A stretch of DNA of 64,000 nucleotides from an uncultured Nitrososphaerales archaeon (GCA_963713605.1 CAVQMO010000010.1:1066676-1130675); one strand, 5' to 3'. Counted from the stretch's first letter, positions 45,360 through 63,987 are shown. A program made the numbers and translations. Notes: generated by a model not told the origin, from the sequence alone.

Positions 45360-45449
45360 CTAATCATTACTCCTTATGACCAGCATGCACATTCTCATAG
45401 CATCAAGCAAGTCATCAAATGAAGTTGCATCCTTATCAAGCATACCTTC
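45360..45449 (-). repeat. Terminase-like 3' tail copy A
   Basis: EGMLDKDATSFDDLLDAMRMCML...*. Confidence 0.8.
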
Positions 45450-45879
45450 CTTTCGTACCTACTTCCTTTTCATAGCGCTCTTTTGCAGTCGGGCATTGGT
45501 ACTGATTGTAACTGTAGTATATTGCAACGACCAATTTTGATACTAAGACAACAACCGGTAATCTACCCTTACCTTACCTTCGTGTATCGTTCCTGATTAT
45601 CTGAATTCTGACATTCTACCTCATAGAGTCGTTCCTCATTATCTGAAATGAATCGAACATTCTTTTGACAACAGGTAGATAGGTGTCAAAATAACCGGGT
45701 TCTGCCTGATATTTTATTTCAAACATTTCATTTTCAAGAGGAGCAGCCACTTCTAGCCATTTTCGAGTCTCATTATTGACATATGAGTAATGGACGATCT
45801 GATAAGCAGGAATCCCGGAGAGAGTAGTATTGGATTGGTCAACTAATCACTTACTTTATGTTTCCGTTAAAGTATGACT

Positions 45880-46515
45880 CTAAAGCAGACTCATGCTTGA
45901 ATTTGGTAATATACGAGTACTTATCGATACGCTAACCGGCTCGGCTAAATCAAAAATACTTCTGTTTATTTCCAATGAATAAAGGAAGGCTACGTGATAT
46001 GCTGCAAGGTTTATTTCAGATTTTGTCCAATTAGGCGGATAATCCATCTTTATATCATAATCTGGGTTTTCATAAGTTAGAAATTCGTTCGAACCAAAGA
46101 CATTATCGAAATAGACTAGGCCTAAGCCCCCAAATGCCATAACTATAATTATGATTGAGCCTATTAACGCAACCGATTGCTGAGGAGTTAACACTTTGTT
46201 ACTTTTAATTTTATGTTGCAATTTATTACTGCCAATGTCTGCCTTTCTAAGTGCCGAATCGAAAGTAAGCGCATGGGTATATGACCGCTCTAACTTTGTT
46301 GGTAGTATTTCTCTAAGTCTTCGTTCCTTGACTATTCCATCAAATGTAGTTTCTATGTCTTTGCGGATTGCTTCGTTTGACAGGCCGTCCTTCTTACCCT
46401 GCTCGTATAACTTTACGGCTACATCAGCAGCGCTAACAAATGCTTGTTTTAGCTCCTCAAGAAGTTTTGAATATTCTCCGGAGCGCTTGGGTTCTATCCC
46501 TTCTGCGGACGTCAT
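45880..46515 (-). CDS. Chimeric ORF: helical N-domain + TM + truncated PsbP-like domain
   Basis: KLYEQGKKDGLS..IRKDIE N-domain; TM; FLTYENPDYDIKMDYPPNW. Confidence 0.55.
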   Translation of the reverse strand: MTSAEGIEPKRSGEYSKLLEELKQAFVSAADVAVKLYEQGKKDGLSNEAIRKDIETTFDGIVKERRLREILPTKLERSYTHALTFDSALRKADIGSNKLQHKIKSNKVLTPQQSVALIGSIIIIVMAFGGLGLVYFDNVFGSNEFLTYENPDYDIKMDYPPNWTKSEINLAAYHVAFLYSLEINRSIFDLAEPVSVSISTRILPNSSMSLL

Positions 46516-46709
46516 TTCTTAGACTTTTTAGCCGGAACGACAGTCTTACGTACTGCAGCGATTAATTCGCCATCCTTACAGACTTCTAAAGTCCATTCAA
46601 CTTCTTCCCCTGCCTTCAGGCCCCACTGTTTTACGATGAACATTGGAACCGTCGTCTTCAAGGATGCCTTGTTTTTCGTGTTCAAAGATAGGGCTGTTCT
46701 CTCTCCCAT
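46512..46709 (-). CDS. AbrB/MazE-family DNA-binding protein
   Basis: SLKTTVPMFIVKQWGLKAGEEVEW; ATG at 46709. Confidence 0.8.
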   Translation of the reverse strand: MGERTALSLNTKNKASLKTTVPMFIVKQWGLKAGEEVEWTLEVCKDGELIAAVRKTVVPAKKSKK

Positions 46710-46917
46710 AGTAATACTACTTGTATACATACAATGGAATATATAATCAGCTAACTTATAAGTATACCTTCTAGTATCCCCAAATGTATATATACCTGTT
46801 GGTGGGTATATTAATAGTAATATTAGAAATGAGTCAAAATCAGATTCAAAAACAAGAAAATAATGAAATACGGCAGTACCCTCCAACTGCCCCCTCCTGC
46901 AGAATTAACTGTACAGC

Positions 46918-47304
46918 GTGAGGATTGAACAAACCGTGAAAGGTGCAAGGATAAGCGTCCACTGCTATAAAAGGATTCTTGAGTTAGCGGCTAGGGAAGC
47001 GATAGAGGCGTACTTAAGTACTCGCAGACAGTTAAAAGAGGTAGGTCTTAAGGTGGCCTATGATTGTAGATCCAATGGATTCGCCAATGTTCAAGTCTAT
47101 CTTGCGGGGAAAGATGATCAGGGTCGTGCAATTCGACTAGAAAGTGACGGGGTAACACCCCATGTACACAAAACTAAAGTACCTTCCCAACAACAGGCAC
47201 AACAGCAGCAGCAACAATTCCGACAGTCGGAAAATAATGTTGTTACTACTATGCATTGCTTCGAACGATGGACGCAAAACTCGACAGGATTCTTAATGTT
47301 CTAA
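46918..47304 (+). CDS. Hypothetical mobile-element protein (possibly degraded)
   Basis: Divergent from the AbrB gene; RLESDGVTPHVH then poly-Q. Confidence 0.4.
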   Translation: MRIEQTVKGARISVHCYKRILELAAREAIEAYLSTRRQLKEVGLKVAYDCRSNGFANVQVYLAGKDDQGRAIRLESDGVTPHVHKTKVPSQQQAQQQQQQFRQSENNVVTTMHCFERWTQNSTGFLMF

Positions 47305-47537
47305 CGGCAAGGGAAACCAGCAGTACCAGGACCTAACTAGTAATTAGTAAGAATGACTAAAGTTAGCATGCAAGATCGGGAATGGGGCAAGAGGGATAAA
47401 GTGACCAACATCCGAGAATGGTAGAAGACGGAAAATACCATCTTACTGCATCCTACAACCATTGGTCATATCACGAGGCGAGGCGATTGAGCTCGTGCAC
47501 GAAGCCATCGGCCGCCCTGTTCCCGGAGGTCGTGAAC

Positions 47538-48353
47538 TTACGCCTTCAGCGCCAGTGTGAGCAGGTAGTCCTGCCTCATCAAATTCTCATGTATGTAAGG
47601 TGTAATGGCTCGTATAAAGTCGTGTTCTAGTGCCTCGACCTTAGCTAGTACCCTGTCCCCCAAGTGCTTGGATGGCGCGTATCAGGGGCCCATATTTTGT
47701 ACTAAACAATTGCCAAAAATGGTTTGGGCTCAATACAGGAATGTGTACGGCACCTCGTTCGAAGTGAAGGTCCTTGACGTTGCTACTGCCTAGACGCTCC
47801 TGTACTGTCTGTGGAATTCCCCATTGCATAGGCGAGGGAGGGCTCCCAGGAGGAGGCGGGACATGCTTTACAATAGCCGCGAAGAATCTTCCTACTGTAT
47901 GTTCAGGAGGCCAAGTTGTAAATGCGATACGGCCCCCTTCCTTTGTGACTCTGATCAGCTCTTTGGAGCAACCTCTGGACGAGGAGTAAACATATGTCCT
48001 AGACTTGATAACACTATGTCAAATGAATTATCAGGAAAGGGAAGGTCTTCAGCATCACCGTGTTTCCATTCGATCCCTTCCGTTACACCGGCAAGGGCTG
48101 CTTCTTCCTTCGCACGTGCCAAAAGTTCAGGTGTGAGGTCTATCCCAATTACCTTCCCCCCTGCTCTGCACGCAGTGATAGCTGTAATGCCAGTACCACA
48201 TGCTACGTCTAGCACTTGCTCACCACGACTGACACTTGCGGCACGTACTAAGTGAGCGGACATAGGAGAAAGGAAGGTCGCTATGTCGTTATAAGAACCC
48301 AAGGCCCAAGTTGCCTTCGCTTTCTCCTTGAGATCTGCAATAGGGTCGCTCAA
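47538..48353 (-). CDS. Class I SAM-dependent methyltransferase (frameshifted)
   Basis: VLDVACGTG, GIDLTP, GDAEDLPFPDNSFD, GGRIAFTTW, WG; ends YLLTLALKA*. Confidence 0.85.
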
Positions 48354-48458
48354 AACAAATCTTCAAAGTACTATTCGACTAGTTGTAATAAAGTTTTTAT
48401 GTTCTAAGGAACGGTATCACCGAGAATTGTCCCTCTAAATTTCAGAACCTACATCATT

Positions 48459-48867
48459 GTGAGGGTCATGTGTCGTTCCCTCTGTCGTCATTCTACACAT
48501 GTGACTCTTCATGATGATGCAGAGGGATATGCCGCGGGATGGAATCCTGGTAATGTTCCTATTACCCCCCTACAAATTCCTCCTATAATTAGCGCTCCAC
48601 CCTTCGGACTCATCACAATCAAATCACCGGTTGAGTTGGAGGGCTTCATTTTCTATAGAAGCCACGTTCGTAAATCCTCAGAATCCTGAAACATTCCAAA
48701 CACCAGAAGAACCACCTATAGTGATTACTAGAGCAGGGCAATGCGAACTGGGTGATGTTAATACATCTACAAATACATTTGGCCTAGATTGTACTCGGGA
48801 TGATGGTACTGGTTCTGTAAGTAGACCCCTTGATGGAGCCATCCTTACATATATTATCACTAAATAG
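48459..48867 (+). pseudogene. Hypothetical protein fragment
   Basis: Two overlapping frames (LHDDAEGYAAGWNP... / ...DGAILTYIITK*). Confidence 0.4.
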
Positions 48868-48894
48868 TCTCACAAGAGAGTAAAACTGACTCGA

Positions 48895-48987
48895 TCAATG
48901 GCAAAATAACAAACTCATTCGAAACGCATCGAATAAATCATCCTGGCTAGTTGCTTCCTTGTCTAATGCACCTTCCCCATTTTCTAG
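48895..48987 (-). repeat. Terminase-like 3' tail copy B
   Basis: LENGEGALDKEATSQDDLFDAFRMSLLFCH*. Confidence 0.9.
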
Positions 48988-49098
48988 AGAAACATTATTA
49001 GAGAACTATAGAAGAATCCATTCTTACATAACTATAGAAGAATCTTATATAAATGATGTTTACGTTATAATAGTTTTACAGTGAGATGATATGAGACG

Positions 49099-49278
49099 AT
49101 GAGATGGGAATGTATTTACTGTAACAGCGTAATGGATAGCACAAACTTTACAGAATTCATAAAACAAAGTGACAACGACAGGAACAGCGTTCAACAAGCG
49201 AAAGTGCAATATCATACTTGGAGACCGCTGCCAGAGTCAGGCGACGAGGCTAGTGCCAGAACAGAAGCGCTAGTCTAA
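49099..49278 (+). CDS. Small CxxC protein, paralog of 60580 ORF
   Basis: MRWECIYCNSVMDSTNFTEFIKQSDND...VQYHTWR. Confidence 0.6.
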   Translation: MRWECIYCNSVMDSTNFTEFIKQSDNDRNSVQQAKVQYHTWRPLPESGDEASARTEALV

Positions 49279-49612
49279 AACCGTCGAACAAATCGTCATA
49301 TGAAGTAGCATCTTTATCTAGGGACCCTTCTCCTTTTTCAACTGCCGTACGTAATGCGGTAATTAACTTCGCATGCTTGGGATTAATTTCTACTTGGCCA
49401 TCATTGTACTCGAGCATCTGCTTACAATGGGCAAGCATCTTTTTATGTTCCTTGGAAAATGCTACCGGGATCACAAACATATTTTCCTCCAGGAATTTCA
49501 AGTCGTAAATTGATGGGTACTGTTTCTTCAAATAAGAACATACGCGTTCATAGTTTGTATCCTCATCCAATCTTTCCTTTAAAGCACGGATAAAGGATGG
49601 ATTAGCGCCGGA
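49250..49612 (-). pseudogene. Terminase large subunit-like C-terminal nuclease fragment (longest tail copy, C)
   Basis: GANPSFIRALKERL...IPVAF...KLITALRTAVEKGEGSLDKDATSYDDLFDGFRLAL, resembling the DxAxP...DDxxDAxR RNase H-type terminase motifs. Confidence 0.6.
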
Positions 49613-49614
49613 AA

Positions 49615-49683
49615 CAATACCAGAACGCTAAACTCATTCGAAACGCATCAAATAAATCATCGGTTGACGTTGCTTCCTTGTCT
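49615..49683 (-). repeat. Terminase-like 3' tail copy D
   Basis: DKEATSTDDLFDAFRMSLAFWY, abutting copy C. Confidence 0.9.
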
Positions 49684-49856
49684 GCATTACTAAATCATCT
49701 TAGCGTACTTACTAAGTTAAAGGACTCAAGTTCGTACTTGGTAGCGTTCGACAGTAAATCTACGGAAGTCTCATTTAACTCTGGATCACCTGTTTCTACA
49801 AAGTCACGAAACAGAGCATAACTTGCACGCTCAGAATTCAAACTTTTTATGTATGT

Positions 49857-50282
49857 ATGGAAAGCAGGCAGCGTGAAGTAAGTGATATAAGAAGTATTGA
49901 AACAGGTATTCAATTCCTTTCTCAGGCTGAGAAAATGGATGAGCTTCATGATGAAATTGGCTTATCTAAGAATGGTTGTAGTTTTCTGCTGCAGCATCCC
50001 AATGGCCTAAAGATATCAGTTGTATCTTTCGAAGATTTGAGGGATGGTGAATTCCTCGAGTTAGCCCATTTTGGAAGACGTCCCAATGATATACAAAGGA
50101 AAAAATGGATTGCTGAAAATGGTATGCAAAAGGACCACGAGCGGCTAGCAGAAGTACTTAGGCAGAGGATGGAAGGCGAGATCCCGGATAAAAATATGAC
50201 CGCGGAAGAAGTGAAGGGCATAATATCATCGGCTCTCAACGATAGTAACAGTAGTAATAGTAGTAGTAGTACTAGGTACTAG
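49857..50282 (+). CDS. Hypothetical protein
   Basis: 141-aa ORF, Ser-rich end. Confidence 0.45.
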   Translation: MESRQREVSDIRSIETGIQFLSQAEKMDELHDEIGLSKNGCSFLLQHPNGLKISVVSFEDLRDGEFLELAHFGRRPNDIQRKKWIAENGMQKDHERLAEVLRQRMEGEIPDKNMTAEEVKGIISSALNDSNSSNSSSSTRY

Positions 50283-50890
50283 TGGCAATCGTAAGAGAAA
50301 GCGCAAAGAATGACTATTCGCTTTCTCGGAACTCCATTAGCCACGATCGACCAATCTTAATACTTAACACACGTTATAAAGCCACCTCATACTATCTCCT
50401 TACCGAGTGGCCTTAATAACAAGGAGAGCCTATCAGATTCAGGGCCTTACTAGGGTTCACAAATACTCGCTAGAACAAATATTGTATTTCCTTCTAAGAA
50501 GGACGATCGGTGGGCATTGGTCGTGTCGTTGACAATAACAGGCTAGACTCATCTGCATATTCCTACATTACAAATAAATCAAAGACGCTAAAAAGTAGTG
50601 GAGCCGGTATAGGATAGAGACCCGCCAACCACTGACCGTCCATATGAAGTAATATCTATTACTGTACCTTGCAGAACGGATAACTTCTTCATATGAAACT
50701 GTTTATTGTAATGATGGTATCTCCATGTGATCCTTTCCTGACCGCTTTAAATCACTGGGTGTGGTTGGGCCAAGTTAACGAGTTTATGCCTAAATAGGTC
50801 AAGAGTTAAGTCCTAACTACTTTGATGACAAATCGACTAGGACGAGCAGAAGCGCATTTTAACTAACTAACTACTTGACTAACTAATCGA

Positions 50891-50923
50891 CTAATGCCAG
50901 AACTCCAGTGACAATCTGAAACT
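50891..50923 (-). repeat. Terminase-like 3' tail copy E
   Basis: SFRLSLEFWH*. Confidence 0.8.
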
Positions 50924-50950
50924 CAATCTCAGTCATAAAAACATCTTTTA

Positions 50951-51018
50951 CATAAACTATAGATGATAAATCAGATTTAAGTAGAGAACATATCTCACCA
51001 AATCCAGATTAGTCATTT
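50951..51018 (+). promoter_or_regulatory. Conserved upstream element of collagen genes (copy 1; others near 52481 and 57530)
   Basis: ATAAACTATAGATGATAAATCAGATTTAA shared by three loci. Confidence 0.65.
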
Positions 51019-51047
51019 TGTGTTTTTGGATGCTTGTAGCAGAAGGT

Positions 51048-52367
51048 ATGGATAATAAGACCAACAACGGAAATCGAAAAATATCAGTTTCAGTAGTCAC
51101 GATAATGCTCATAGTTGGAGCAGTATCAACAGCACAACTATCGTCTATGGTAATAACTAATGGTAATGTAGTCTACGCCTATTCTGCCAATTCTGAATCA
51201 AGCAGCATCTCAAGTCATTAACTGCTCGGGACAAGATGAGAGTAGCCAAAATTGTGTAAACAATAATCTTGAAACGCAAGGAAAAGATAATGATGTAAAT
51301 GCTCAGATCTCGACACCATCAGGACCCCAAGGGCCTTCTGGACCTCAAGGACCGGAGGGACCCCAAGGACCACAAGGAGTGCAGGGACCAGCAGGTGCAG
51401 TAGGACCAGCAGGACCACAGGGTGAACAAGGACTACAAGGGATTCAAGGAATTCAAGGAGTTAAAGGAGATACTGGCGCTACAGGACCAGCAGGACCAGC
51501 AGGTGCAGAAGGACCAGCAGGACCAGCAGGTGCTAGTAGGACCAGCAGGACCAGCAGGTGCTGAAGGACCAGAAGGTGCTGAAGGACCAGCAGGACCAGC
51601 AGGCAGCAGGTGCAAAGGACAGCAGGCTGCAACAGGTACCAGTAGGACCAGCAGGTGCTGAAGGACCAGCAGGACCAGCAGGGCCAGCAGGTGCAATAGG
51701 ACCAGCAGGACCAGCAGGTGCAATAGGACCAGCAGGACCAGCAGGATGCAATAGGACCAGCAGGACCAGCAGGACCAGCAGGACCAGCAGGTGCAAAAGG
51801 ACCAGCAGGACCAGCAGGTGCAGCAGGTGCAATAGGACCAGCAGGTCCGAAGGACCAGCAGGTGCAGAAGGACCAGCAGGACCAGCAGGTGCAATAGGAC
51901 CAGCAGGACCAGCAGGTGCAATAGGACCAGCAGGACCAGCAGGTGCAATAGGACCAGCAGGACCAGCAGGTGGCAGCAGGTGCAATAGGACCAGCAGGTG
52001 CAATAGGACCAGCAGGACCAGCAGGTGAATAGACCAGCAGGACCAGCAGGTGCAATAGGACCAGCAGGTCCAGCAGGACCAGCAGGACCTGACAAGGTAT
52101 TACAAACTACGAGCTACAAGCAAATCCGCCCACTACAATTACGCCCAACTCGGGAATTGGAACTAGCATGGTGACCTGCCCTCCAGGAACAGTCGTGACG
52201 GGAGGAGGAATGGAGCTCCTCGGCGCCCAACCAAGTTACGTTCTCTGTTGAAACGGGCCACCAGATTGGCAATGGATGGACGGTTGAATTTTTTAATGGT
52301 ACTCCTACTTCTGCTAATGCCCAATTGCGTGCTGTGGCAACCTGTGCTTCACTAATACCACCTCTAG
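51048..52367 (+). CDS. Secreted collagen-like protein 1 (frameshifted; end approximate)
   Basis: Signal ..VVYAYS, NCSG...NCVNN, long GPA/GAI Gly-X-Y run, C-terminal [11 protein letters not shown]...ATCA. Confidence 0.85.
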
Positions 52368-52575
52368 GTACCTTAAGTAAGGACAAACCTCCACCTCTTT
52401 TTTTCCATTCAAACTTCCCACTCTTTTTATCTTTTTGAAACACGAATATTTTTAGAACACGAATATTTTTAGAATCCTTGATATAAACTATAGATGATAA
52501 ATCAGATTTAACTAGCAAACAGATTTCACCAAATCCAAATAAATCAATTTCCCCTTCTTGGTACCGCTAGAGAGC

Positions 52576-53601
52576 ATGGGAACCAATATTAGAAAAACCA
52601 AGGGAATTCGGACGTTATCTATGTCGGTAACTACGATATTGCTCGTTGGCAGCATCAGTGGTACAACTGTCGTCTATGACATTATCCAATGGTAATGTAG
52701 TTTACGCGTATTCTTCCAACTTTAATTCGGCAGCGTCTCTTGTCATTAACTGTTCAGGAGATCATGAGAGTAGTCAAAATTGTGTAAACAATAATCTGGA
52801 ATCACAGGGAAAAAATAATGACAATAATGCGCAGGTAAGCACACTACCTGGACCGCCAGGACCTCAAGGACCAGCAGGACCAGCAGGATCACAGGGTGAA
52901 CAAGGACTACAAGGAGTTAAAGGAGATACTGGCGCTACAGGACCAGCAGGACCAGCAGGTGTACTAAGGACCAGCAGGATCACAGGGTGAACAAGGACTA
53001 CAAGGAGTTAAAGGAGATACTGGCGCTACAGGACCAGCAGGATCACAGGGTGAACAAGGACTACAAGGAGTTAAAGGAGATACTGGCGCTACAGGACCAG
53101 CAGGATCACAGGGTGAACAAGGACTACAAGGAGTTAAAGGAGATACTGGCGCTACAGGACCAGCAGGATCACAGGGTGAACAAGGACTACAAGGAGTTAA
53201 AGGAGATACTGGCGCTACAGGACCAGCAGGACTCACAGGGTGAACAAGGACTACAAGGAGTTAAAGGAGATACTGGCGCTACAGGACCCGCAGGTGCAGT
53301 AGGACCAGCAGGACCACAAGGAGAGAGTGCAACCACGCAGGTATTGCAAGCCAGAGTTACTGCTACAAATTTCAAGACCATACCTTCGGGTACGGGCGAC
53401 CAGGTTTTCGCACCATCATGTGCATCTGACGAGGTTGTGACGGGAGGGGGAACGTTTACTACCGGAAGTCAAAACAACGAAAATAAACTTGAGGATACAA
53501 GTGCTTTCGGCCCTGGGAGTTTTAGGATTATCAATCCCGGTCCAAATGCAGTAAATATAGGTGCATACGCAATATGTGCAAAGTTAGTCGACGCACCCTG
53601 A
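52576..53601 (+). CDS. Secreted collagen-like protein 2 (frameshifted)
   Basis: Paralogous N-terminus; 63-bp unit [21 protein letters not shown] about 6 times; [11 protein letters not shown]...AYAICAKL. Confidence 0.85.
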
Positions 53602-53617
53602 CTCTCTTTTGTATTTT

Positions 53618-53688
53618 CTAGTGCCTAAATGCATCCACCAGGTCATCATATGACGTTGCTTCCTTGTCCAGGACGCCTTCTCCCCATT
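53618..53688 (-). repeat. Terminase-like 3' tail copy F
   Basis: GEGVLDKEATSYDDLVDAFRH* (internal deletion). Confidence 0.9.
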
Positions 53689-53842
53689 AATCCTAAATCA
53701 AAATCTAAGACCAAAACAGAGGACACATCATGAAGAGGCTCCATTACGTTATCAGTTAAAGATCTAGTTATTTATTTTCTGGTTTCATGTGGTCTTAAGT
53801 TTACCTACCCGGAAGGGAGATCAGCAACAGCATATCGACACA

Positions 53843-54466
53843 ATGACTGCTGAAAATGCTGCCACCGATTTGTTGCCATGGATTGTTGCCGGAATCACCG
53901 GGATAGGAGTAGTAGTTTCCTTTATTACATTTTGGTTTCAGCGGGAAAGATCTCATGAGACTGCTAAAGCAGAGAAACAAAGAGTTCTTCTCGCTAGATT
54001 AGCAGAAGCCTTTCGATTGTTATATGATGTAAGACATAGAGTGGCGCGAAAAGTTGTTTACGGTAATCCTGACCCTTCATCATTTGAAATCATTGGACTT
54101 AATAGGCCTACAGTTGAAGGAAATTATAGTTATGACGAACTGACTCGAATATGCAAAGAGATAGTGAAAAATGATTGCAACGAAATCGGCGTTCTAGCAC
54201 ATCATGGTCTTGTAGACGGAGATAAATTCATCGAAGAAGGCTTTTGGGTTATTCTGAAAGTCTGGGACCTCCTAAAGGATGACATAGTGGAAAGACGAAA
54301 AAGAGATTCATTAATGAAGTTATATATCCCTAAAAGTGCACAAAGGAGTCAAATGAACGTCCTGATGCCACTAAGGGACTCTCATCTGACTATGGTCTTC
54401 AGGTTCCTCCATATGGTTTTCAAGACCTTCATTTGGACTAGAGTATTCAGAAATACCGTCTGGTAA
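53843..54466 (+). CDS. Membrane-anchored DUF4760-like protein, C-terminus probably chimeric
   Basis: N-terminal TM; NDCNEIGVLAHHGLVD...W..LK..I.ERR pattern. Confidence 0.5.
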   Translation: MTAENAATDLLPWIVAGITGIGVVVSFITFWFQRERSHETAKAEKQRVLLARLAEAFRLLYDVRHRVARKVVYGNPDPSSFEIIGLNRPTVEGNYSYDELTRICKEIVKNDCNEIGVLAHHGLVDGDKFIEEGFWVILKVWDLLKDDIVERRKRDSLMKLYIPKSAQRSQMNVLMPLRDSHLTMVFRFLHMVFKTFIWTRVFRNTVW

Positions 54467-55426: not shown

Positions 55427-55543
55427 TCAATGCCATACTGCAAGGATAGTCTAAAACTATCGAATAGGTCGTCATGACTAGTCGTATCTTTGTCTAATGT
55501 GCCTTCACCATTCTACCGCAGTCCTTAACGCAGTGATTAACTG
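55427..55543 (-). repeat. Terminase-like 3' tail copy G
   Basis: LITALRTAVE/NGEGTLDKDTTSHDDLFDSFRLSLQ..WH*. Confidence 0.9.
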
Positions 55544-55821
55544 CCAAACTAATTAAACAGATCTTCATGTTCCTGGTGGGTGGCAACGACACTGACATGT
55601 CGCAGTTCCAGATTCAACAGGGGCCACTCCGGAACATTCAATATGCTTTTCGTCTCTGCATGCCTGAGATAATACCTCTTCAGTCAACGAATTATCCATA
55701 GGAGGCAATACATATAAGACATTCCAGAAAAGCAGTTCGGGCCAATCAGTATGTTGGTCGCTTCAATAATCTAAATATGGAATGATCCAAGTTATAAGAC
55801 CTGTTCGAAATACATGAGTTA

Positions 55822-56868
55822 ATGACTACCCTTATGGTTGGAATTCACAATTCTGTTCTCGTGCTTGATTCCTCAGATGATTTTAAGATTAGGGAGATTT
55901 CCAAAGGTGGTAATCCACAAGGTAAAGAGTCAGAATCTCCAGGGCATAAGCCATCGTGCATAGCATTTGATCCTCAAAACTCCCATCGTGCATATTGGGG
56001 TATTTTCAATAATGGCCTGTGGAAAACAGATGATCGTGGCCAGTCCTGGGATAACATTGGAAAAGATAGTTTCTCCAGCCCACGAATCATGTCCGTTGCG
56101 GTTAGTTCTCTGAATAGTGGAAATAAATCTAACAAAGTATATGCAGGAACCGAACCAAGTGCACTCTATGTTTCAAATGATGGAGGAGATAGTTGGGAAA
56201 GAATGAAAGCATTAAATGATTTACCCTCGTCAAAAACATGGAGCTTTCCACCGAGACCATATACTCATCACGTTCGTTGGATTGAACCAGATGCAACCAA
56301 TCCTGATTATCTATTTGTCGCTATAGAAGCAGGAGCCCTGGTGCAAAGCCGTGATGGAGGTAAAACTTGGATGGACAGAGTTAAAGGAGGCCCGTATGAC
56401 ACACATACTTTAGCTACTCATCCAAAAGCGCCCAAGCGCCTCTACTCCTCTGCAGGCGACGGGTACTATGAAAGTCTTGATTATGGAGAATCATGGAATA
56501 GACCCATGGAAGGATTGAAACATAGTTACCTTACTGGGATAGCAGTTGATTCGGGTAATCCTGATGCTGTGATTGTCTCAGCCTCTGATGGCCCTTTCAA
56601 GTCATTCTCTCCCAACAGCGCTGAAACATTTCTATACAGAAAAGATGATGAAGATGGCAAAAAATGGAAGGTTGTTTCAGACGGTGTTCCTCACCCAAGT
56701 GGAACTACTATGTCGATCTTGGCATCAAATCAAAAGGTTCAAGGAGAGTTTTATGCCGTCAATAATCATGGTGTCTTTATTTCGAACGATTTGGGTGAAT
56801 CATGGAGGGAACTTACTAATGAATGGCCCAACGAAAGTACTCCTTTGGCGCTTGCTGTTTCCGAATAA
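55822..56868 (+). CDS. BNR/Asp-box beta-propeller protein
   Basis: Asp-boxes TDDRGQSW, SNDGGDSW, SRDGGKTW, SLDYGESW, SNDLGESW; WSFPPRP.THHVRWI. Confidence 0.9.
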   Translation: MTTLMVGIHNSVLVLDSSDDFKIREISKGGNPQGKESESPGHKPSCIAFDPQNSHRAYWGIFNNGLWKTDDRGQSWDNIGKDSFSSPRIMSVAVSSLNSGNKSNKVYAGTEPSALYVSNDGGDSWERMKALNDLPSSKTWSFPPRPYTHHVRWIEPDATNPDYLFVAIEAGALVQSRDGGKTWMDRVKGGPYDTHTLATHPKAPKRLYSSAGDGYYESLDYGESWNRPMEGLKHSYLTGIAVDSGNPDAVIVSASDGPFKSFSPNSAETFLYRKDDEDGKKWKVVSDGVPHPSGTTMSILASNQKVQGEFYAVNNHGVFISNDLGESWRELTNEWPNESTPLALAVSE

Positions 56869-56898
56869 TGGTAAAGGGACATTACTAAATAATTTACA

Positions 56899-57009
56899 CA
56901 TGCCAGAACTGCAGAGACATTACGGAATGTTGCGACTAACTTTGTATGTTTAGGATTGGTTGTCGAAATGCATCAAACAAGTCATCATGGCTAGTGCTTC
57001 CTTGTCCAA
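56899..57009 (-). repeat. Terminase-like 3' tail copy H (two pieces)
   Basis: 56963-57009 LDKEA.SHDDLFDAFR; 56899-56928 FR.MSLQFWH. Confidence 0.85.
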
Positions 57010-57068
57010 TATGAAGTCAAGGTAAGGTGGAGAAAACTAATAGTCTAGTCTTTTGATTAAGGAGAATA

Positions 57069-57468
57069 TTGGATAATCAAGAAATACGTGCGATTCTGGA
57101 TCGTTATTGGGAAGCCACGTTAGCTCATGATTTAGAGAGGGTGCATGAGTTTTATCATGATGATGTTGTAGTCGAATTTCCACAATCTGGCGAACGCATT
57201 CGGGGCAAGCAAAACATATACGATCTCAGAGCACACTACCCCACTGAGGCTACTTATAAAATCCTGAGAGTTCGTGGAGATGGAAATCTCTGGACTACTG
57301 AAGTGACTGTCAACTATGAGAATGACAATGAACGCCCAGTCAATGGGGTAGCCATCATGGAGTTTCGAAATGATAAAATCGCACATGAAACACTCTATTT
57401 TGCATATCCATTTGAACCACCTGAGTGGAAGATCTCAATGGGTCGAGATTGTCAAGGATAACAAGTAA
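57069..57468 (+). CDS. SnoaL/NTF2-like protein
   Basis: YHDDVVVEFPQSGERIRG...EFRNDKIAHETLYFA.PFEPPEW; probable terminal frameshift. Confidence 0.85.
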
Positions 57469-57480
57469 ATGACTTGGTAA

Positions 57481-57507
57481 TCAGTGCCAGAACTGCAGAG
57501 ACAATCT
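57481..57507 (-). repeat. Terminase-like 3' tail copy I
   Basis: RLSLQFWH*. Confidence 0.8.
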
Positions 57508-57529
57508 GGCGGCGTCATAGGCTTCTTTG

Positions 57530-57645
57530 ATATAAACTATTGATGACAAATCAGATTAAAATACCAATCATATTCTCCAGAACCCAGATAAATTATTTAG
57601 CAGGACCGCCCGGAGTGACAGGAGTGACAGGTGCTCAAGGAGACC
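57530..57645 (+). pseudogene. Collagen gene remnant (promoter fused to a Gly-X-Y fragment)
   Basis: Third copy of the collagen upstream element directly followed by AGPPGVTGVTGAQG. Confidence 0.6.
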
Positions 57646-58258
57646 ATCCCTTCAGTGATTTATATGCCTCAGGGGTAATGAAGGTAAAGTATTGTTCCTC
57701 GTCCCCGGCATATACTATTAGTTTGGCGGCCAGGATATCATCCTCAGTATCATTACACCAAGGAATTACGTGTTTCCATTTAAGGTAATCCCATGCACCA
57801 ATTCTGATCCCTGAAGAGACCATTGTAAAGACTATGGGTTTAATTCTTCTGTCAGGGTATTCAATAATGATTTTTATTTCCTCTAGACTTGGCGCCCTGT
57901 CATTGGCGGCTTTTCCCGAATGGGGCAAACCGCGCGATATCTTCTTCCAATTCAATACGATGTCATTCATTTCACAGAATAATTTGGTTGCCCTATTGTA
58001 ATTTGGGATGGTACATTCTGCTATCTCGCCTCTTTTGGCTACAAATGCCATAAGACTTTCTTCACACCACTTAAGATCCTTGCTTGCCGTCAGATAGAAT
58101 TGTTCGGCCTGTTCAACTAAAGAGCCTTTCAACCCCAAGTAATCAAGAAATATTTTGAATCTGCGTGGATACTGTCGCTTAGATTCTGGTGCCTTTAGTG
58201 CGTACGTGAAAACAGTCATCGGGTCTTTTCTTGGTCTTTCTATGGGTCCTCTAAGCAA
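57635..58258 (-). mobile_element. Tyrosine recombinase/integrase, C-terminally truncated
   Basis: ALKAPESKRQYPRR, DRAPSLEEI, MVSSGIRIGAW (box I Arg), YFTFITPEA; no HxxR or catalytic Tyr. Confidence 0.85.
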
Positions 58259-58304
58259 ACTTCCTATTCTTTTATGGCAGTGGGCATAATTAAAGGGACA
58301 AGAT

Positions 58305-58332
58305 TGGCGCGGGCTCGGAGGGATTCGGAACC
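58305..58332 (-). other. tRNA 3'-end remnant (T arm + acceptor strand), probable att site
   Basis: GGTTC(C)GAATCCCTCCGAGCCCG, like the 3' end of archaeal tRNA-Arg, about 50 bp upstream of the integrase. Confidence 0.6.
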
Positions 58333-58834
58333 TTTGAGTATGCGGGTTCGTTTGCTAGTTAGAAGTGCTGTAAGTATTATGCAGACTCAGGATTTTCTAA
58401 TATCGTTAGCGATACCATTCGTGAAGGTTTAAAACTGGCCAACTGGCAACAACACACAAACCCACGTAATGAACCCAGAAAAAAATATTGGGTTTGTCTA
58501 ACTTGACCTACAGCTTTTTCCAGCCTCTAATATTCTGTCGATTGCTGCCCTGTCTAGTCTACCAGCCTTCCATAACTCTGATAGTAGTTGGTTTAGAAGC
58601 CTTGTTAGATTAGAGTTCTCGGGAATGTTTACTTTTCCTTCTGCCGCGCTCATACCTGTCTGTCTCAACCTTTACTTAGTTGTCGTTGCTTTAAGCATGT
58701 TTTGCAAGATATTTTCAAGGTGTGATTCGGAAGTGTCCTATTACCCAATACTGCGTATACATTGTTTACCATGGTGGGTTTATTATGCGCTGGAAATAGT
58801 AAAGGAACTATCTTCTTACGTTACCTAATAAAAA

Positions 58835-59110
58835 CTACTTTTTCTTATTATAATACGACCGTAGATCTTTCATGACTATCTTAAACCTATTCTCTAAACT
58901 ATCTAGTCTTTGACCCATTCTTTTATCGTCTTGGTGAGTATCGATAAGGTATCTGTATGCACTATCAATTGCTTTAAGGTAAGCGTATACATATGACTCT
59001 ACTGGTATATCCCTTGCCTGTACTTTCACGCCCTTCACGCTCCACTAATTCTTTGTATACCATTTCACCTTTGTTAATTATAATCTCTTCCAACTCTTTT
59101 TCATTCGACA
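58835..59110 (-). CDS. Hypothetical protein (frameshifted)
   Basis: MSNEKELEEIIINKGE.../KGVKVQARDIPVESYVYAYLKAID... Confidence 0.4.
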
Positions 59111-59238
59111 TTTTATGTCTAGATAAATTAGACACAGATATAAAATTACGGGGTTTCAGTAGAAGAAGAATAATAGGTGGTGAGATGTAAAACCATGCCC
59201 CAGATAGACCCCCACTCACTGCCAGGACAACTTCTTTT

Positions 59239-59340
59239 CTATCTTCGATTTACAGCATGGCAACGACACTCGCATGTAAAGGTATCGCTCCATTTACACG
59301 ATCTATGATTGTTTGTTAGGCATCCCAATGATAATTGCAT
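59239..59340 (-). CDS. 33-aa Cys/His-rich microprotein, copy 1
   Basis: MQLSLGCLTNNHRSCKWSDTFTCECRCHAVNRR*; paralog at 61089-61190. Confidence 0.75.
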   Translation of the reverse strand: MQLSLGCLTNNHRSCKWSDTFTCECRCHAVNRR

Positions 59341-59413
59341 TATTTACTTGATTTAATAATAGTCGGAGATCCTAAAAAATAGTGTATTACGATTGTTAAG
59401 GGGTTTGGGTAAT

Positions 59414-59500
59414 TTAATCCATAAATAATGCTAAATATCGATGTCCTCTCTGTGTGATTCGATACCGAGAGGGCCCCGTGAATTCATTTTCAGACAACAT
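59414..59500 (-). pseudogene. Winged-helix gene 3' tail, copy 1
   Basis: SENEFTGPSRYRITQRGHRYLALFMD*. Confidence 0.6.
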
Positions 59501-59536
59501 CTCTGCATACTATGGATCTGTCTTCCTGACAAACTG

Positions 59537-59875
59537 TTATGACGGATCATCAACTAATAGAGAATAGTTCTGTATCTTCAATAGGTCTGATACTGACGAT
59601 TCAAGTATCCTGAACTGAAAAGGGGCTTTCTCTCCTGCAGGTATAGTATCAGGAGTAACATACGTTATGTCGGTTCCTATAACATTTCCTTCTGCGTCGT
59701 ATAGTGTCGCCGATATCTCTACTATACCTACATCCCCGTTTCCATTGTTTATAACCTCTCCTGCTATATGATATGAAGGCGTCAACTCATTATTGTCTAG
59801 CCACGATTCTGTTTTGCCTACTATTTCTACTTGTGCTAGCACTTGTGTATTTAGAATCCCTAATATTCCTACCAT
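59537..59875 (-). CDS. FxLYD-domain protein
   Basis: HIAGEVINNG...ISATLYDAEGNVIG...IPAGEKAPF. Confidence 0.85.
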   Translation of the reverse strand: MVGILGILNTQVLAQVEIVGKTESWLDNNELTPSYHIAGEVINNGNGDVGIVEISATLYDAEGNVIGTDITYVTPDTIPAGEKAPFQFRILESSVSDLLKIQNYSLLVDDPS

Positions 59876-60225
59876 GGTAAAAAAGATACCAATGATAACA
59901 CTATATCATATATTTGTCCACCTACAAATCGGCTTAAGTCTATCTTTGTAGGAGCCAGAATATTGTAATATTGTTGTATACCAATTGACCTAGACTCGTC
60001 CTTTTGAATTAGCGCTGACACTATATGTTGGGGAGGTGGAGGTGAATATGGTTGCTGGACTTGCATCTGCATAGTAGGCTGCTGGGGCTGCTGCTGTTGA
60101 GTCCCCGTCTGGGCATTGAAGTTGGGACGTAGAGACGAAGATAACAAAGGCAACAGAAGAAAGCATACTATTAGCACCGCTAATTTCCTGGATATTGGTC
60201 CATTAATTATCACCCCTAACTGCAA
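59869..60225 (-). CDS. Hypothetical secreted protein fragment
   Basis: Signal-like segment then Q/P-rich linker. Confidence 0.4.
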   Translation of the reverse strand: MQLGVIINGPISRKLAVLIVCFLLLPLLSSSLRPNFNAQTGTQQQQPQQPTMQMQVQQPYSPPPPQHIVSALIQKDESRSIGIQQYYNILAPTKIDLSRFVGGQIYDIVLSLVSFLPW

Positions 60226-60404
60226 ACTATAAGCAATCTAGAGAGAAGTATTATGTAAACATTCAGTAAAGAGATTACATAGGCCTTACTAACTCCTTTT
60301 GACGATGGTTCGATTCATTCCTGAGGAATCAATCAATTCAATTGTAGATTCGATAATGGTAGCACCCTGTCCTTCAATAATTTGTCTTCATTTGGATCTT
60401 GTAT

Positions 60405-60475
60405 GGGTTATTACCTATCGCTGCTGGTCTGTGGATATTTCTAGCATAATTTCACCGTAGGCCTGTAATAGCCCT
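60405..60475 (+). repeat. Imperfect hairpin element, copy 1 (copy 2 at 60887-60961)
   Basis: GGGTTATTAC...GTAATAGCCC outer stem with inner GGTCTGTGG/CCGTAGGCC stem. Confidence 0.65.
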
Positions 60476-60579
60476 TCTATAATTAACCGATTAATTACTC
60501 CCCTATAGAAGTCAAAGGGGGAGACTTACAGAACTATGTGTGAACCTGTTATAAGCAATGACAAATAAGATGAGGCCGC

Positions 60580-60843
60580 ATGAGAGAGGAAATGAAGTGG
60601 GTTTGTGTGGATTGTAACAAAGTATTGGACAAAACCAACTTCGTCGATTTCATAAAGGAAAGTGACAACGATAAATATAGCAATCAAGAAGCGGTAGGTA
60701 CAGTATCACCACTGGAGATTTCTGCTGCCACCAACCTCATCGTCGTCATCATCATCAGAGGAGGAACACGAAATGGTAGACGTTCCTTGGCCCAAGCGGA
60801 CCATAATCTAAGGCCAGCCAGGCTTACTTTCTCTAGTCTCTAA
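60580..60843 (+). CDS. Small CxxC protein, paralog of 49099 ORF (frameshift near 60695)
   Basis: MKWVCVDCNKVLDKTNFVDFIKESDND...VQYHHWR. Confidence 0.6.
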   Translation: MREEMKWVCVDCNKVLDKTNFVDFIKESDNDKYSNQEAVGTVSPLEISAATNLIVVIIIRGGTRNGRRSLAQADHNLRPARLTFSSL

Positions 60844-60886
60844 CGACGGGAGAGGCTTATTTAGTTTAATGCACAACTGTCTATAC

Positions 60887-60961
60887 GGGGTTATTACTAT
60901 CCACCCTGGCCTGCGGATATTTCCTAGTACAGAATTTCACCGTCAGGTCGGTAATAACTCC
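60887..60961 (+). repeat. Imperfect hairpin element, copy 2
   Basis: GGGGTTATTAC...GTAATAACTCC outer stem with inner GGCCTGCGG/CCGTCAGGTC stem. Confidence 0.65.
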
Positions 60962-61088
60962 TTCAAACTTGAAGATAAACGTTCTGTTCGAATATCAAAG
61001 TATTAATCTGTCAATGATTAGCAAAACATTCCCTCAATGATCAGTTATTCCAGAAATTGAGCCGTTGTCTTCATTATCTTTGTTATTT

Positions 61089-61190
61089 CTATCGTCGATT
61101 TTCAGCGTGGCAGCGACATTCGCAAGTAATGTTATCGCTCCACTTACATGCCCTATGATTGTTTGTCAAGCACCCTAATGATAATTGCAT
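61089..61190 (-). CDS. 33-aa Cys/His-rich microprotein, copy 2
   Basis: MQLSLGCLTNNHRACKWSDNITCECRCHAENRR*. Confidence 0.75.
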   Translation of the reverse strand: MQLSLGCLTNNHRACKWSDNITCECRCHAENRR

Positions 61191-61275
61191 TATTTACTTA
61201 TCATAATAATAGTCGGAGATCCTAACTAGTGTATTACGATTGTAACGGGGTCGGGTAAAAATAAGAGGGTTATGG

Positions 61276-61539
61276 CTAGGTTGGACAATCTCCTAACGCT
61301 TTCTCGGCACCTTCGTTGGCTTGTTGTATTCCTCTGTCACTTGCATGAGTTGTAGTATCAGGCTCGGTCTTTGCATCCTGCTTTCCTTCTAAATCAAGCA
61401 TTTTATCACATGCCCTATCCGAACGTGAGTCTTCGCCAGAACTTGCGAATGATATTGCTATTGTGGAAGACTCTAGTACAGCCATCACAGAGGCAGATAT
61501 CGCCCCTAACATTAATCCCATGAGTATGGTCTTTTTCAT
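61276..61539 (-). CDS. Small secreted protein
   Basis: MKKTILMG signal peptide; two Cys; upstream TATTTATA box. Confidence 0.65.
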   Translation of the reverse strand: MKKTILMGLMLGAISASVMAVLESSTIAISFASSGEDSRSDRACDKMLDLEGKQDAKTEPDTTTHASDRGIQQANEGAEKALGDCPT

Positions 61540-61622
61540 TGCAGGGCCAGGCTATAGCGACGAAGTATAAATAGGTACGGCAGAAGAATCATTGCCCGAA
61601 CGTCATCGATAAAGGAAATTAC

Positions 61623-61706
61623 TCATTCGGTAAATAAGGACAAATACCGTTGTCCTCTCTGAGTTATTCGATACCGATATGGACCTGTTATATGATCTTC
61701 AGAACG
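61623..61706 (-). pseudogene. Winged-helix gene 3' tail, copy 2
   Basis: SEDHITGPYRYRITQRGQRYLSLFTE*. Confidence 0.6.
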
Positions 61707-62482
61707 CGACCGACTCAGTAATCTGTGAGCGATCTCAACCGCAGTATCGGAAGTGACGAATTCTGTAGTGACAATCCAAGTCATTTTGCATGTGATGGAA
61801 AGGTAGGAAACAGTCAAGATGATAACGAAGATGACCCTGATTATAGAACAGAGAGTGATCTAACTGATGCAGAAAAAGAAGAGAAAAAGACAGATACAAA
61901 AGGAGCCTGTTAGGGCGACGACTATGAAGGATTCTTAGTGGGAGAACTGCCAGAAGTTAGGTGATACAATTTATGATTCCTCGTAAGTCACCTACTTCTC
62001 CTCCTTTATTCGTTGGATATCAGTAACACTGGGTGCTATCTCTGCCTCTACTGCTTCACGTCTTTTTACCTCTAGCGTTCTCAAGATATCGTGTATTGCC
62101 TCTGCGGTAAGCCTGTGACTTTCCGCTTCGCCTATTTCACCGTTATGGACATAGCCCTCAGCCAATGTTGCTTGTCTATAGGCTCAAGTGATAGGTGGCC
62201 CATCGTCAACTCCATATCCGAACGGTCGATGCCTCTCAGGAGGTTGGATAAATTACTAAGTCTCTTTTCTCTCTTATCTTCCGACTGGTTAGACATAATA
62301 ACCATTATTCATAAAAATATTTAGATATATTCAATTTCACGGGGTATCCTCGTAGACAGAACATAAATACGTAAAAGACTACCGAAGAGATAGTTTGTCA
62401 ATCAATCTTTCATTTCTTGCATCATACGGTAACAGGGTCATTATTGACCTCGCAATAACACAAATGACCTAAATCTTTGATT

Positions 62483-62551
62483 CTAATGCCAGAACAACAA
62501 TGACATCCTGAATGCGTCCATAAGGTCGCTTCTTTGTCAAGCGATCCCTCC
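62483..62551 (-). repeat. Terminase-like 3' tail copy J
   Basis: EGSLDKEAT/LMDAFRMSLLFWH* (short internal deletion). Confidence 0.9.
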
Positions 62552-62587
62552 CGCAGGAAATCCTTAAGTAAAGAGGCCCATTATCAT

Positions 62588-63865
62588 ATGCATTTGTCAT
62601 TAAAGATAATAGCAGTAGTTCTTTCAGTTTATTCAATATCATTCTTATTTTGTGGTGTAGCCTTCACAGTTCATGCTCAATCGGACTTGCAGACAACAAA
62701 ATATAGAAATATGGTTATAGATTTGGGTAATGGTTTAAAGACTAACGCTAGGCTAAATCTTCCATCCAATGGGGACGGTCCCTTCCCAGGTGTTCTTCTT
62801 GTACCTGGCTCTGGAAAGACGGATATGAATGAAACTGCAGGCTACGTTCACATAGATAACGAAACAGGCTCAATTATTTATCCGCCTGGTAGACCGTTCT
62901 TTGAAATAGCCGAATATCTTTCAGAAAGAGGTTTTGCAGTATTGCAGTATGACAAGAGAGGTATTGGCGCGAATCTGACAGTTCTGGATAGCAATGTATG
63001 GGGGAATGTAACTGTTGATGAACTAAAGCAAGATGCAGAGAAGGCCTTAAATGTTCTTATACAGCAACCAGAGGTGGATGCTAGCCATGTAACTCTAGTT
63101 GGACATAGCGAGGGTACAACGATTGTCCCAAGAGTTGCAATCGACAATCCAGATAAAGTAGATAATATTGTACTGATGGGGACCTTGGCCCAAAACTTGC
63201 GTGAAATAGGATACTTCCAAGGTGTTACGAACCCAGTACACTACGCTCAACAGGTTCTAGACCATAATCACAATGGATTGATATCAGTACAAGAAGCGTC
63301 TGAGAATCCTATTTTTAATACTATTTTTGGGAACCTTACTCTATTTCTTGCTCAAAATATAACTGCTACAAATGGAACATCCGAACAACTAAATCCCCGA
63401 TATAATACGAATAATGATACTTTCATAAGTATTAATGAAGAACTCAAACCTAGGATAATAAATTTTATCAAATCATTTTCATCTCAGGTTGTAACACCAG
63501 GTGAAAAGTGCGATCCCCGTAACACCTGTCCCATTTGGCTTAAAACGCATTACCCTACACCTACTATAGATATCATAAGTAAAGTTCCATCAGATACATC
63601 TATTCTAATACAACAAGGGAAGAATGATTCACAAACCCCAATACAGCAAGCACTTCTTTTACAGCAGGAACTGACAGAAGTAAGACATCCTGATCATACA
63701 TTGATAACATACTCTGACCTCGGCCATGCTTTCTATCCTTCATCTCAATGGGTAACTGCTTTTGGCCCAATGGAACAAAAGGTTCTGGAAGATCTTTTTG
63801 GCTGGCTTTCAGATCCAGTCAGAGACTTTAAGAAGTTAACCATTTTATCTTCGCAAATGCCTTAG
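62588..63865 (+). CDS. Secreted alpha/beta hydrolase
   Basis: Signal peptide; VPGSG..D, YDKRG, GHSEG nucleophile, QGKNDSQ, LGH. Confidence 0.9.
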   Translation: MHLSLKIIAVVLSVYSISFLFCGVAFTVHAQSDLQTTKYRNMVIDLGNGLKTNARLNLPSNGDGPFPGVLLVPGSGKTDMNETAGYVHIDNETGSIIYPPGRPFFEIAEYLSERGFAVLQYDKRGIGANLTVLDSNVWGNVTVDELKQDAEKALNVLIQQPEVDASHVTLVGHSEGTTIVPRVAIDNPDKVDNIVLMGTLAQNLREIGYFQGVTNPVHYAQQVLDHNHNGLISVQEASENPIFNTIFGNLTLFLAQNITATNGTSEQLNPRYNTNNDTFISINEELKPRIINFIKSFSSQVVTPGEKCDPRNTCPIWLKTHYPTPTIDIISKVPSDTSILIQQGKNDSQTPIQQALLLQQELTEVRHPDHTLITYSDLGHAFYPSSQWVTAFGPMEQKVLEDLFGWLSDPVRDFKKLTILSSQMP

Positions 63866-63913
63866 GTTGTTAGCAGATTCCTCATCTGTAACGCGAATGA
63901 ATCGATAGCCAGA

Positions 63914-63987
63914 TTAATGCCAGAACTGCAGTGAAAGCCTGAAGTCCTCAGTGACTCACCATACTGCAAAGACAATCTGAATGTATC
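63914..63987 (-). repeat. Terminase-like 3' tail copies K and L
   Basis: 63914-63943 FRLSLQFWH*; 63958-63987 DTFRLSLQY. Confidence 0.8.

Follow-up and report, generated by a model that had tools for sequence, protein, structure and literature searches.

Co-oriented terminase gene ends in a soil ammonia-oxidising archaeon resemble the scars of a cassette-stacking mobile element

Why should the last part of one virus-type gene recur, always in the same orientation, across an accessory region of an archaeal chromosome? The question is raised by a stretch of 64,000 nucleotides (nt) from an uncultured Nitrososphaerales archaeon, positions 1066676-1130675 of contig C10 in genome G000, hereafter called the window and numbered from its first base; its end is also the end of the contig. 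G000 is a metagenome-assembled genome (MAG), 87% complete, of a soil ammonia-oxidising archaeon. An initial annotation of the window listed twelve fragments encoding the C-terminus of a large terminase (gene terL). All twelve sites are present and all lie on the minus strand, as seen by tblastn, profile search and translation. Together with their counterparts elsewhere in the genome, these terL ends, referred to as tails, look like the scars of a previously undescribed mobile element that stacks cassettes.

Tail lengths in the window range from 27 nt to 363 nt. Seven of the twelve end in F-W/C-H/Y, and the stop codon follows directly in six of these seven. The core pattern TTYTGGYAYTRR matches the minus strand at 49250, 50891, 57481, 62483 and 63914, exactly where the initial annotation had placed these copies. 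Tail 1 (45372..45527), the lowest-coordinate member of the array, is decayed and translates as ...LDKDATSFDDLLDAMRMCML; tblastn aligns 45381-45527, and the profile match at 45381-45452 covers model positions 471-495. Tails 2, 3, 6 and 7 were each recovered by tblastn, profile and translation. Tail 2 (48895..48990) reads SLENGEGALDKEATSQDDLFDAFRMSLLFCH plus stop and closes with DAFRMSLLFCH. Tail 3 (49250..49615) is the longest, with 121 codons running from VSGANPSFI...DDLFDGFRLALLFWH to FWH and the stop; it carries no cargo and lies directly against tail 4 (49617..49685; ADKEATSTDDLFDAFRMSLAFWY; profile and translation), which ends DAFRMSLAFWY without a stop codon. The two are directly fused, tail 3 starting at the base after FWY. 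Mini-tail 5 (50891..50920, FRLSLEFWH plus stop) is the own tail of a collagen-like cassette. Tail 6 (53624..53683, GEGVLDKEATSYDDLVDAFR) has lost its 3′ end, and tail 7 (55435..55543) reads QLITALRTAVE / GEGTLDKDTTSHDDLFDSFRLSLQY. Tail 8 (56900..57061; tblastn and translation) is interrupted and is the own tail of a SnoaL cassette. Mini-tail 9 (57481..57525; core pattern and translation) is an internally deleted variant, EAYDAARLSLQFWH plus stop; tail 10 (62483..62550; tblastn, core pattern and translation) also bears an internal deletion. The array closes with mini-tail 11 (63914..63949, EDFRLSLQFWH plus stop; tblastn, core pattern and translation) and tail 12 (63958..63999, DKLRDTFRLSLQYG, ending RDTFRLSLQYG; tblastn), which reaches the end of the contig.

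What is the parent gene? The best genomic copies, extended as fragments, give a protein of ~495 amino acids (aa), and the terminase identity proposed by the initial annotation is borne out. PHROG_2 (large terminase) is matched with E 3e-23 by P0017 and 2e-17 by the G000 copy, and Pfam PF17289 (Terminase_6C) scores above cut-off in 7 of 11 full-length copies scanned. A PDB sequence search with a 36-sequence profile returned chance hits only (E 0.17 or worse). The AlphaFold2 model of terL has a mean predicted local distance difference test score of 68.8, with 84-93 in the nuclease half, and its top Foldseek hits are all large terminases: T4 gp17 (1e-12), HK97 TerL, D6E and Sf6, with separate hits for the ATPase domains and for the nuclease domains. 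Eleven residues (K89, K90, T92, G93, G95, E187, D189, D315, D375, D481 and D484) are invariant in 36 terL relatives; we take them to be the Walker/ATPase motifs and the nuclease acidic triad. The PHROG, Pfam and fold evidence thus supports the terminase call, and the tail encodes the last acidic cluster. The family is large: 3909 relatives at E <= 0.001 in a large protein collection, mostly ~500 aa long and from soil metagenomes and Nitrososphaeraceae MAGs, many on contigs of 1.6-3.5 kb. Among 80 other Nitrososphaeraceae genomes surveyed (78 without two unpublished genomes, G035 and G077), 63 carry terL (61 of 78), in multiple copies, and many gave ~20 scored matches; the seven genomes searched from genus g2 gave none.

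The array in the window is real but not special to it, as G000 holds many such arrays. Profile search detects 72 tails in the genome (40 plus, 32 minus), forming 15 clusters and 26 singletons, and addition of mini-tails outside this set, that is, short terL ends (from 27 nt) found by motif, gives 98 ends. Contig C13 repeats the ends of C2 (C2:78569-100497) and C12 (C12:377834-389318) at 99.2-99.7% identity, so the assembly holds redundant strain variants and a few tails would be double-counted; C13 was therefore excluded from profile-tail, mini-tail, core-pattern and codon-skew counts. An apparent three-copy repeat on C13, C2 and C12 was rejected as an active element, this identity being assembly redundancy. 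The motif [RK]x[SAT][LMFI]xFW[HY]-stop occurs 48 times in G000 versus 0 in two 1.5-Mb first-order Markov simulations.

Copy number rises steeply along the gene. By tblastn, residues 1-230 of a 494-aa terL reference are covered by 4-8 copies, residues 260-420 by 13-19 and residues 471-490 by 81-85; profile search gives 4-6 copies at the 5′ end versus 67-70 at the 3′ end. When 87 tails are aligned at the last codon, similarity ceases at the stop codon, and what follows is unrelated between copies. A helix-turn-helix (HTH) gene that lies upstream of terL has ~20 copies in G000 without a comparable end gradient. Every terL copy in G000 is broken, the best having two frameshifts. Two subfamilies are distinguished by their C-termini, ...SLQFWH-stop and ...CNYEPPKN-stop.

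The initial annotation had named random orientation and even scatter across the genome as the pattern that would undo its proposal; the copies are instead clustered and locally co-oriented. Profile tails form 31 neighbouring pairs at <=10 kb versus 11.5 expected (maximum 21 in 2000 random placements), and 26 of these 31 are co-oriented (p = 2e-4). With mini-tails included, co-orientation holds for 41 of 47 neighbouring pairs, at a median spacing of 2.3 kb (interquartile range 0.8-3.5 kb). Elsewhere, 12 of 59 loci in other genomes have extra tails; of these 20 tails, 18 point the same way as the long copy and 14 are downstream of it. Locus L002 shows an integrase, a 124-aa open reading frame (ORF), an intact terL and then two mini-tail units 0.65-0.7 kb long. 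Around 27 intact terL genes, nucleotide matches to the gene's own tail number three only, all downstream on the same strand and too few for statistics.

How have the tails diverged? Information per codon position is 1.12, 1.41 and 0.78 bits. Among 24 distinct in-frame short tails the proportion of synonymous differences (pS) is 0.81, which is saturated, that of non-synonymous differences (pN) is 0.25, and pN/pS is 0.31, a ratio to be read with the caveat that detection by protein similarity favours conserved peptides. In the other two frames the same tails give 0.88 and 1.47, and seven intact terL genes give 0.16. Divergence is thus mainly at synonymous sites, and the saturated pS with low in-frame pN/pS means that the tails stem from many old coding alleles, both as originally proposed. 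The idea that they form a library of alternative terL C-termini was rejected: the protein sequence is conserved, not diversified. The last codons carry a further signal. Phe is TTC in 36 of 46 tails and Gln is CAG in 22 of 25, compared with 40% TTC and 54% CAG in the bodies of 16 intact terL genes and 35% and 41% in long ORFs genome-wide. This skew points to a probable constraint on the DNA itself at the ...CAG TTC TGG CAT end of terL.

What, then, is inherited together with a tail? For the SnoaL cassette (window 57030-57448) the survey covered 25 loci in nine genomes (five loci in G000, 20 spread over the eight others). Its cargo gene (57069..57461, plus strand; Pfam PF12680, E 4e-15) recurs in all of them and mostly keeps its own tail: at 19 of the 25 an opposite-strand tail lies 0-112 nt beyond the SnoaL start codon, and in 13 of these 19 it begins at terL residues 451-466. 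A preceding tail stands beside the SnoaL stop codon in 15 of 25 loci, and its start varies from residue 368 to 486. The constancy of the own tail and the variability of the preceding one imply that cargo and the tail downstream of it are inherited as one unit, inserted behind the stop codon of another. Each collagen-repeat gene at 50943-53601 is likewise a cassette with its own mini-tail, and a tail variant with one common internal deletion accompanies collagen-like cassettes on C5, on C12 and at window 57481. In 13 of 13 same-genus genomes (12 of 12 if G035 is left out), cassettes of the window turn up one at a time on different contigs, and a colinear array of them occurs in none. Cargo orientation is mixed in G000, with 18 intervals whose longest ORF shares the strand of the tail and 11 in which it does not; several cargo genes of the window converge on the preceding tail.

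A candidate enzyme keeps company with the tails. G000 has 12 loci of an L002-type tyrosine integrase, mostly fragments, of which 10 lie <=8 kb from terL fragments (random mean 3.0, P(>=10) = 3e-4), and almost all share their strand. The window contributes one, a truncated tyrosine-recombinase gene (57635..58258, minus strand) that is co-oriented with the tails and was recognised through tblastn matches to the integrase of L002 and to five further integrase loci of G000; this fragment has no Pfam or PHROG match of its own. The integrases matched only the generic Phage_integrase family and PHROG integrase families.

Recent duplicates start 2 nt and 12 nt past a tail's last sense codon, and for the latter a tail end precedes both copies. 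In L002 one mini-tail unit has 13 nt identical to the gene end; nucleotides shared at unit ends number only 9-13, for example GTTCTGGCACTAG in L002. Between loci L060 and L061 (tblastx; one pair among four loci of genome G078), similarity is confined to terL and ends ~40 nt after it. Within the genome, window 62386-62521 (136 bp, a tail plus 100 nt) is 99.3% identical to C10:874454-874589, 190 kb away, and the flanks of this patch are ~90% identical between the two arrays. A 140-150-bp piece here (tail plus ~95 nt; window 62386-62538), with the same 99.3% match 190 kb away, is absent from an otherwise 90-92% identical copy at C1:573497; this difference is a recent small insertion, deletion or conversion at the tail. 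No hairpin folding was found in 10 folds on both strands (z -1.6 to +1.1, none better than 13 of 200 shuffles), so the tails are not integron attC sites. Integration at a tRNA was also dismissed: the only tRNA in the window, tRNA-Pro at 18085, is far from the array.

Is the parent a virus? Among 94 ORFs at 10 chromosomal terL loci, Pfam found no capsid or portal family, though it may miss divergent archaeal capsids. The neighbours are transporters, kinases, dehydrogenases, defence genes, three DDE transposases and one integrase, and locus L008 holds a Ku gene. PHROGs gave the HTH partner weak generic HTH matches only, and a small-terminase identity for it was set aside. Relatives of terL in IMG/VR are 30-52% identical, and two annotated ones adjoin head-packaging genes; the IMG/VR contig L091 has a weak portal-family match near terL. 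The lack of capsid genes at the chromosomal loci, together with IMG/VR relatives beside head genes, identifies the chromosomal family as a branch of the tailed-virus terminases that stands without capsid genes. Among viral relatives the closest found, at 52% identity, is in the IMG/VR contig L088 (2737-12079), beside minor head, major head and minor tail protein genes; this virus is possibly a relative of a helper or ancestor. At three chromosomal loci further genes lie between the HTH gene and terL: an ABC transporter and a glutamate dehydrogenase at L003:657-6478, one ORF of unassigned function at L004:8519-11467, and a histidine kinase with its response regulator at L010:6498-11488. Such cargo suggests a second insertion hotspot upstream of terL, outside the reach of a tail-based model.

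How might such arrays arise? The explanation favoured here, to which we assign a probability of about one half, is that the terL 3′ end is a recombination site and that the arrays formed by serial site-specific integration of elements and miniaturised cassettes. Each tail would then mark the right-hand edge of one mobile unit in a head-to-tail stack. The parent family, resident in Nitrososphaeraceae chromosomes, comprises an HTH protein, the terL ATPase-nuclease and often a tyrosine integrase, and the site would be the last ~12-27 nt of terL (...CAG TTC TGG CAT, stop). An incoming unit, either a whole element or a miniaturised derivative of cargo plus tail, would bring its own terL 3′ segment, recombine at a resident tail and land just past the terL stop codon, shifting older units downstream. 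Repeated insertion would build a co-oriented array of cargo-plus-tail units, much like the partial tRNA copies in tRNA-targeted islands, and the variable 5′ ends of tails, fixed within each cassette family, would mark the point of an ancestral fusion between terL and cargo. From the comparative data we infer that recombination is site-specific, that the tyrosine integrase is its enzyme and that the crossover lies in this segment. The initial annotation had offered a cassette system with the tail as recombination or homology anchor, and that part of it fits the recurrent cargo-plus-own-tail units, the shuffling and the codon skew; enzyme and crossover are the parts that stay conditional. Its proposal that the host had collected the ends of viruses gives way to borders of stacked capsid-less terL/HTH/integrase units.

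Several observations weigh against this explanation. Most units lack an integrase, with 12 integrase loci for ~100 tails and most of those genes fragmentary. No unit is flanked by a clear identical att core longer than ~13 nt, and an 816-bp duplicate (99.4% identical), which reaches 21 nt past the stop, shows neither a shared core nor any duplicated target where it joins on the left. In L002 the 8 kb upstream of the integrase contain no tail, and seven further intact terL genes have no profile-detectable tails ~3-15 kb downstream. Finally, tails of both terL subfamilies, with their different C-termini, are intermixed within arrays.

The 816-bp duplicate would be more at home if the terminase itself broke the DNA. 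Guided by its HTH partner, terL might cut a pac-like site at the end of its own gene, and the resulting fragments, variable on the left and constant on the right, would be packaged or set free and then ligated, through end-joining or short-homology repair, to other tails that had been cut, which would make the terminase itself the cassette-mobilising nuclease. Units do have one precise end, at the tail, and a left end that is not conserved, and the monotonic 5′ truncation gradient resembles end-anchored processes. The enzyme has the terminase fold, with acidic nuclease-type residues and ATPase motifs invariant across the 36 relatives, and a gene that is intact and multi-copy at loci devoid of capsid genes presumably does something; the Ku gene of L008 also fits. 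This route is nevertheless doubtful: the HTH partner is not recognisable as a small terminase, ~100 tails accumulate in G000 yet no terL there is intact, and the integrase association is more simply explained by integrases as the agents. Moreover, we know of no pac or cos site at the 3′ end of a terL gene. General recombination of the host, acting on tails as portable homology patches without any dedicated site or enzyme, would also produce the observed order, since, judging from the anatomy, a single crossover between a circle with a truncated tail and a resident gene would yield gene, stop, cargo and truncated tail; the 136-bp patch, 99.3% identical between flanks at ~90%, resembles gene conversion. 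Many tails are just 27 nt long, however, synonymous saturation makes them poor substrates for homologous recombination, and a codon skew limited to the last codons suggests a specific site, all of which renders homology as the sole agent improbable.

Decay without any role for the tails, in which many proviruses or elements eroded and their terL 3′ ends were kept by chance or detection bias, is disfavoured and seems quite improbable. It accommodates the broken state of every G000 copy, the relatives of up to 52% identity in true head-tail virus contigs beside head and tail genes, and the relaxed constraint in tails (pN/pS 0.31 versus 0.16 in intact genes). Random deletion would not, however, leave one end of the gene in 15-fold excess, its copies all limited by the stop codon, nor would it give local co-orientation or cargo-plus-tail units conserved across nine genomes, and the neighbouring HTH gene lacks such a gradient. 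An antisense viral memory, also raised by the initial annotation, would have cargo transcripts read into the preceding tail to give antisense RNA against terL-bearing viruses. The cargo genes converging on the preceding tail in the window would allow it; orientation is inconsistent genome-wide and the tails are >=48% diverged from the closest viral terL found, which makes it very improbable, and nothing else points to it. The constant 3′ end also prompted consideration of retroelement-type 5′ truncation and of rolling-circle (IS91 or Helitron-like) one-ended transposition.

How does serial integration at the terL end compare with known systems? Tycheposons of Prochlorococcus combine tandem tyrosine-recombinase integration at a gene 3′ end with partial-tRNA arrays (bioRxiv 10.1101/2020.12.28.424599). 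Thaumarchaeal integrated elements, which likewise form partial-tRNA arrays, are reported to use short att sites (median 17 bp), and 14 of 68 lie in 3′-distal parts of protein genes (PMC6563490). The arrays described here share with both the co-oriented partial copies of a target gene 3′ end across an accessory island, the displacement of older units by newer ones and the interspersed integrase fragments. They differ from both in that the repeat is the end of the element's own terminase gene rather than of a tRNA or host gene, that ~100 copies occur per genome with repeat 5′ ends varying continuously between cassette families, and that many units comprise one gene in 0.3-1.5 kb and lack an integrase. 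Integrons are arrays of small, mostly single-gene cassettes, each ending in a conserved attC that forms an imperfect hairpin in single-stranded DNA; their platform is linked to a tyrosine recombinase of the IntI type, with attI heading the array. The tail arrays resemble them in their small cassettes, one conserved end site, an order that differs between genomes and a linked tyrosine recombinase; in contrast, the tail site lies at the end of a coding sequence, diverges as such sequences do and forms no hairpin, cargo orientation is mixed, and the linked recombinase is assigned to generic integrase families only. A full integron-like cassette system of soil ammonia-oxidising archaea, with the last ~12-27 nt of a capsid-less terL as its site and the terminase-fold nuclease perhaps cutting there, is a tentative and rather unlikely version of the idea.

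By gene content a close parallel is NitKor-E1, an integrated thaumarchaeal element of Ca. Nitrosopumilus koreensis, which has small (TerS) and large (TerL) terminase subunits, a tyrosine integrase and no other head-tail virus genes, and whose terminase Krupovic et al. 2019 call enigmatic in role (PMC6563490). The family described here likewise joins a terminase to, in many cases, a tyrosine integrase and shows no capsid genes at the 10 loci scanned; no tail arrays are reported for NitKor-E1, and the present family was missing from the seven g2 genomes. SSV-type 'suicidal' integrases of archaea have their recombination site inside the element's own gene (PMC7253208). This likeness would extend to terL, with the difference that in the SSV type the integrase gene is split and the target is a tRNA gene, and that the proposed site in terL sits at its extreme end and leaves the gene intact. 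From the TerL proteins of tailed viruses (T4 gp17, HK97, D6E, Sf6), with which terL shares the ATPase and RNase H-type nuclease fold and the PHROG_2 match, the family is set apart by its loci without portal or capsid genes (by Pfam, at 10 chromosomal loci) and by an HTH partner that PHROGs do not assign to the small terminases. Full-text literature searches, whose coverage excludes most subscription journals, returned no description of terminase-tail arrays.

The remaining cargo of the window is on the plus strand and was assigned by Pfam unless noted. An alpha/beta-hydrolase gene (62534..63865) has copies in G000 and in same-genus genomes, and a BNR / Sortilin-Vps10-like gene (55822..56868) has copies elsewhere. 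The two collagen-repeat cassettes (50943..53601; Pfam Collagen) are supported by aligned cassette heads and by internal and genome-wide repeats; their collagen-triple-helix genes (GPAGPAG...) contain long internal tandem repeats and have paralogues on C5 and C12. A small CxxC ORF (49099..49278) is convergent on tail 3 and has a second copy at 60580-60843. It belongs to a ~200-bp unit (49014-49261; 60580-60843) encoding a mini-protein of 40-45 aa that converges on the terL stop codon; G000 has at least 12 copies, often directly after a tail, and the mini-protein matched no Pfam or PHROG family.

Other repeats lie at lower coordinates. A 340-aa ORF (window 42359-43381) has four paralogues of 76-86% identity elsewhere in G000, and the accessory region containing it starts upstream of the first tail. 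Beside it, window 44018-45164 encodes putative secreted proteins, small and rich in Asn, Gly and Thr, of which C3 and C12 hold further copies. A further segment, window 39497-40443, has 55-67% G+C and a strong AT skew in a genome of ~40% G+C, and its overlapping open frames encode Ala/Gly/Ser/Gln-rich low-complexity repeats.

What would the arrays mean for these archaea? Nitrososphaeraceae are major soil nitrifiers whose accessory genomes are poorly understood. If serial integration at the terL end is correct, a large share of their strain-variable genes would sit in cassette arrays built on one recognisable site, with cargo that in the window includes hydrolases, SnoaL-like enzymes, methyltransferases and surface repeat proteins. 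The tail would then provide a simple sequence marker for locating such islands, and the family would be an experimentally approachable candidate for a novel archaeal system of recombination or gene capture. A possible function would also emerge for the capsid-less TerS/TerL pairs, enigmatic to Krupovic et al. 2019. Should the terminase prove to cut the site, a virus packaging enzyme would have been turned into an engine for collecting and shuffling accessory genes.

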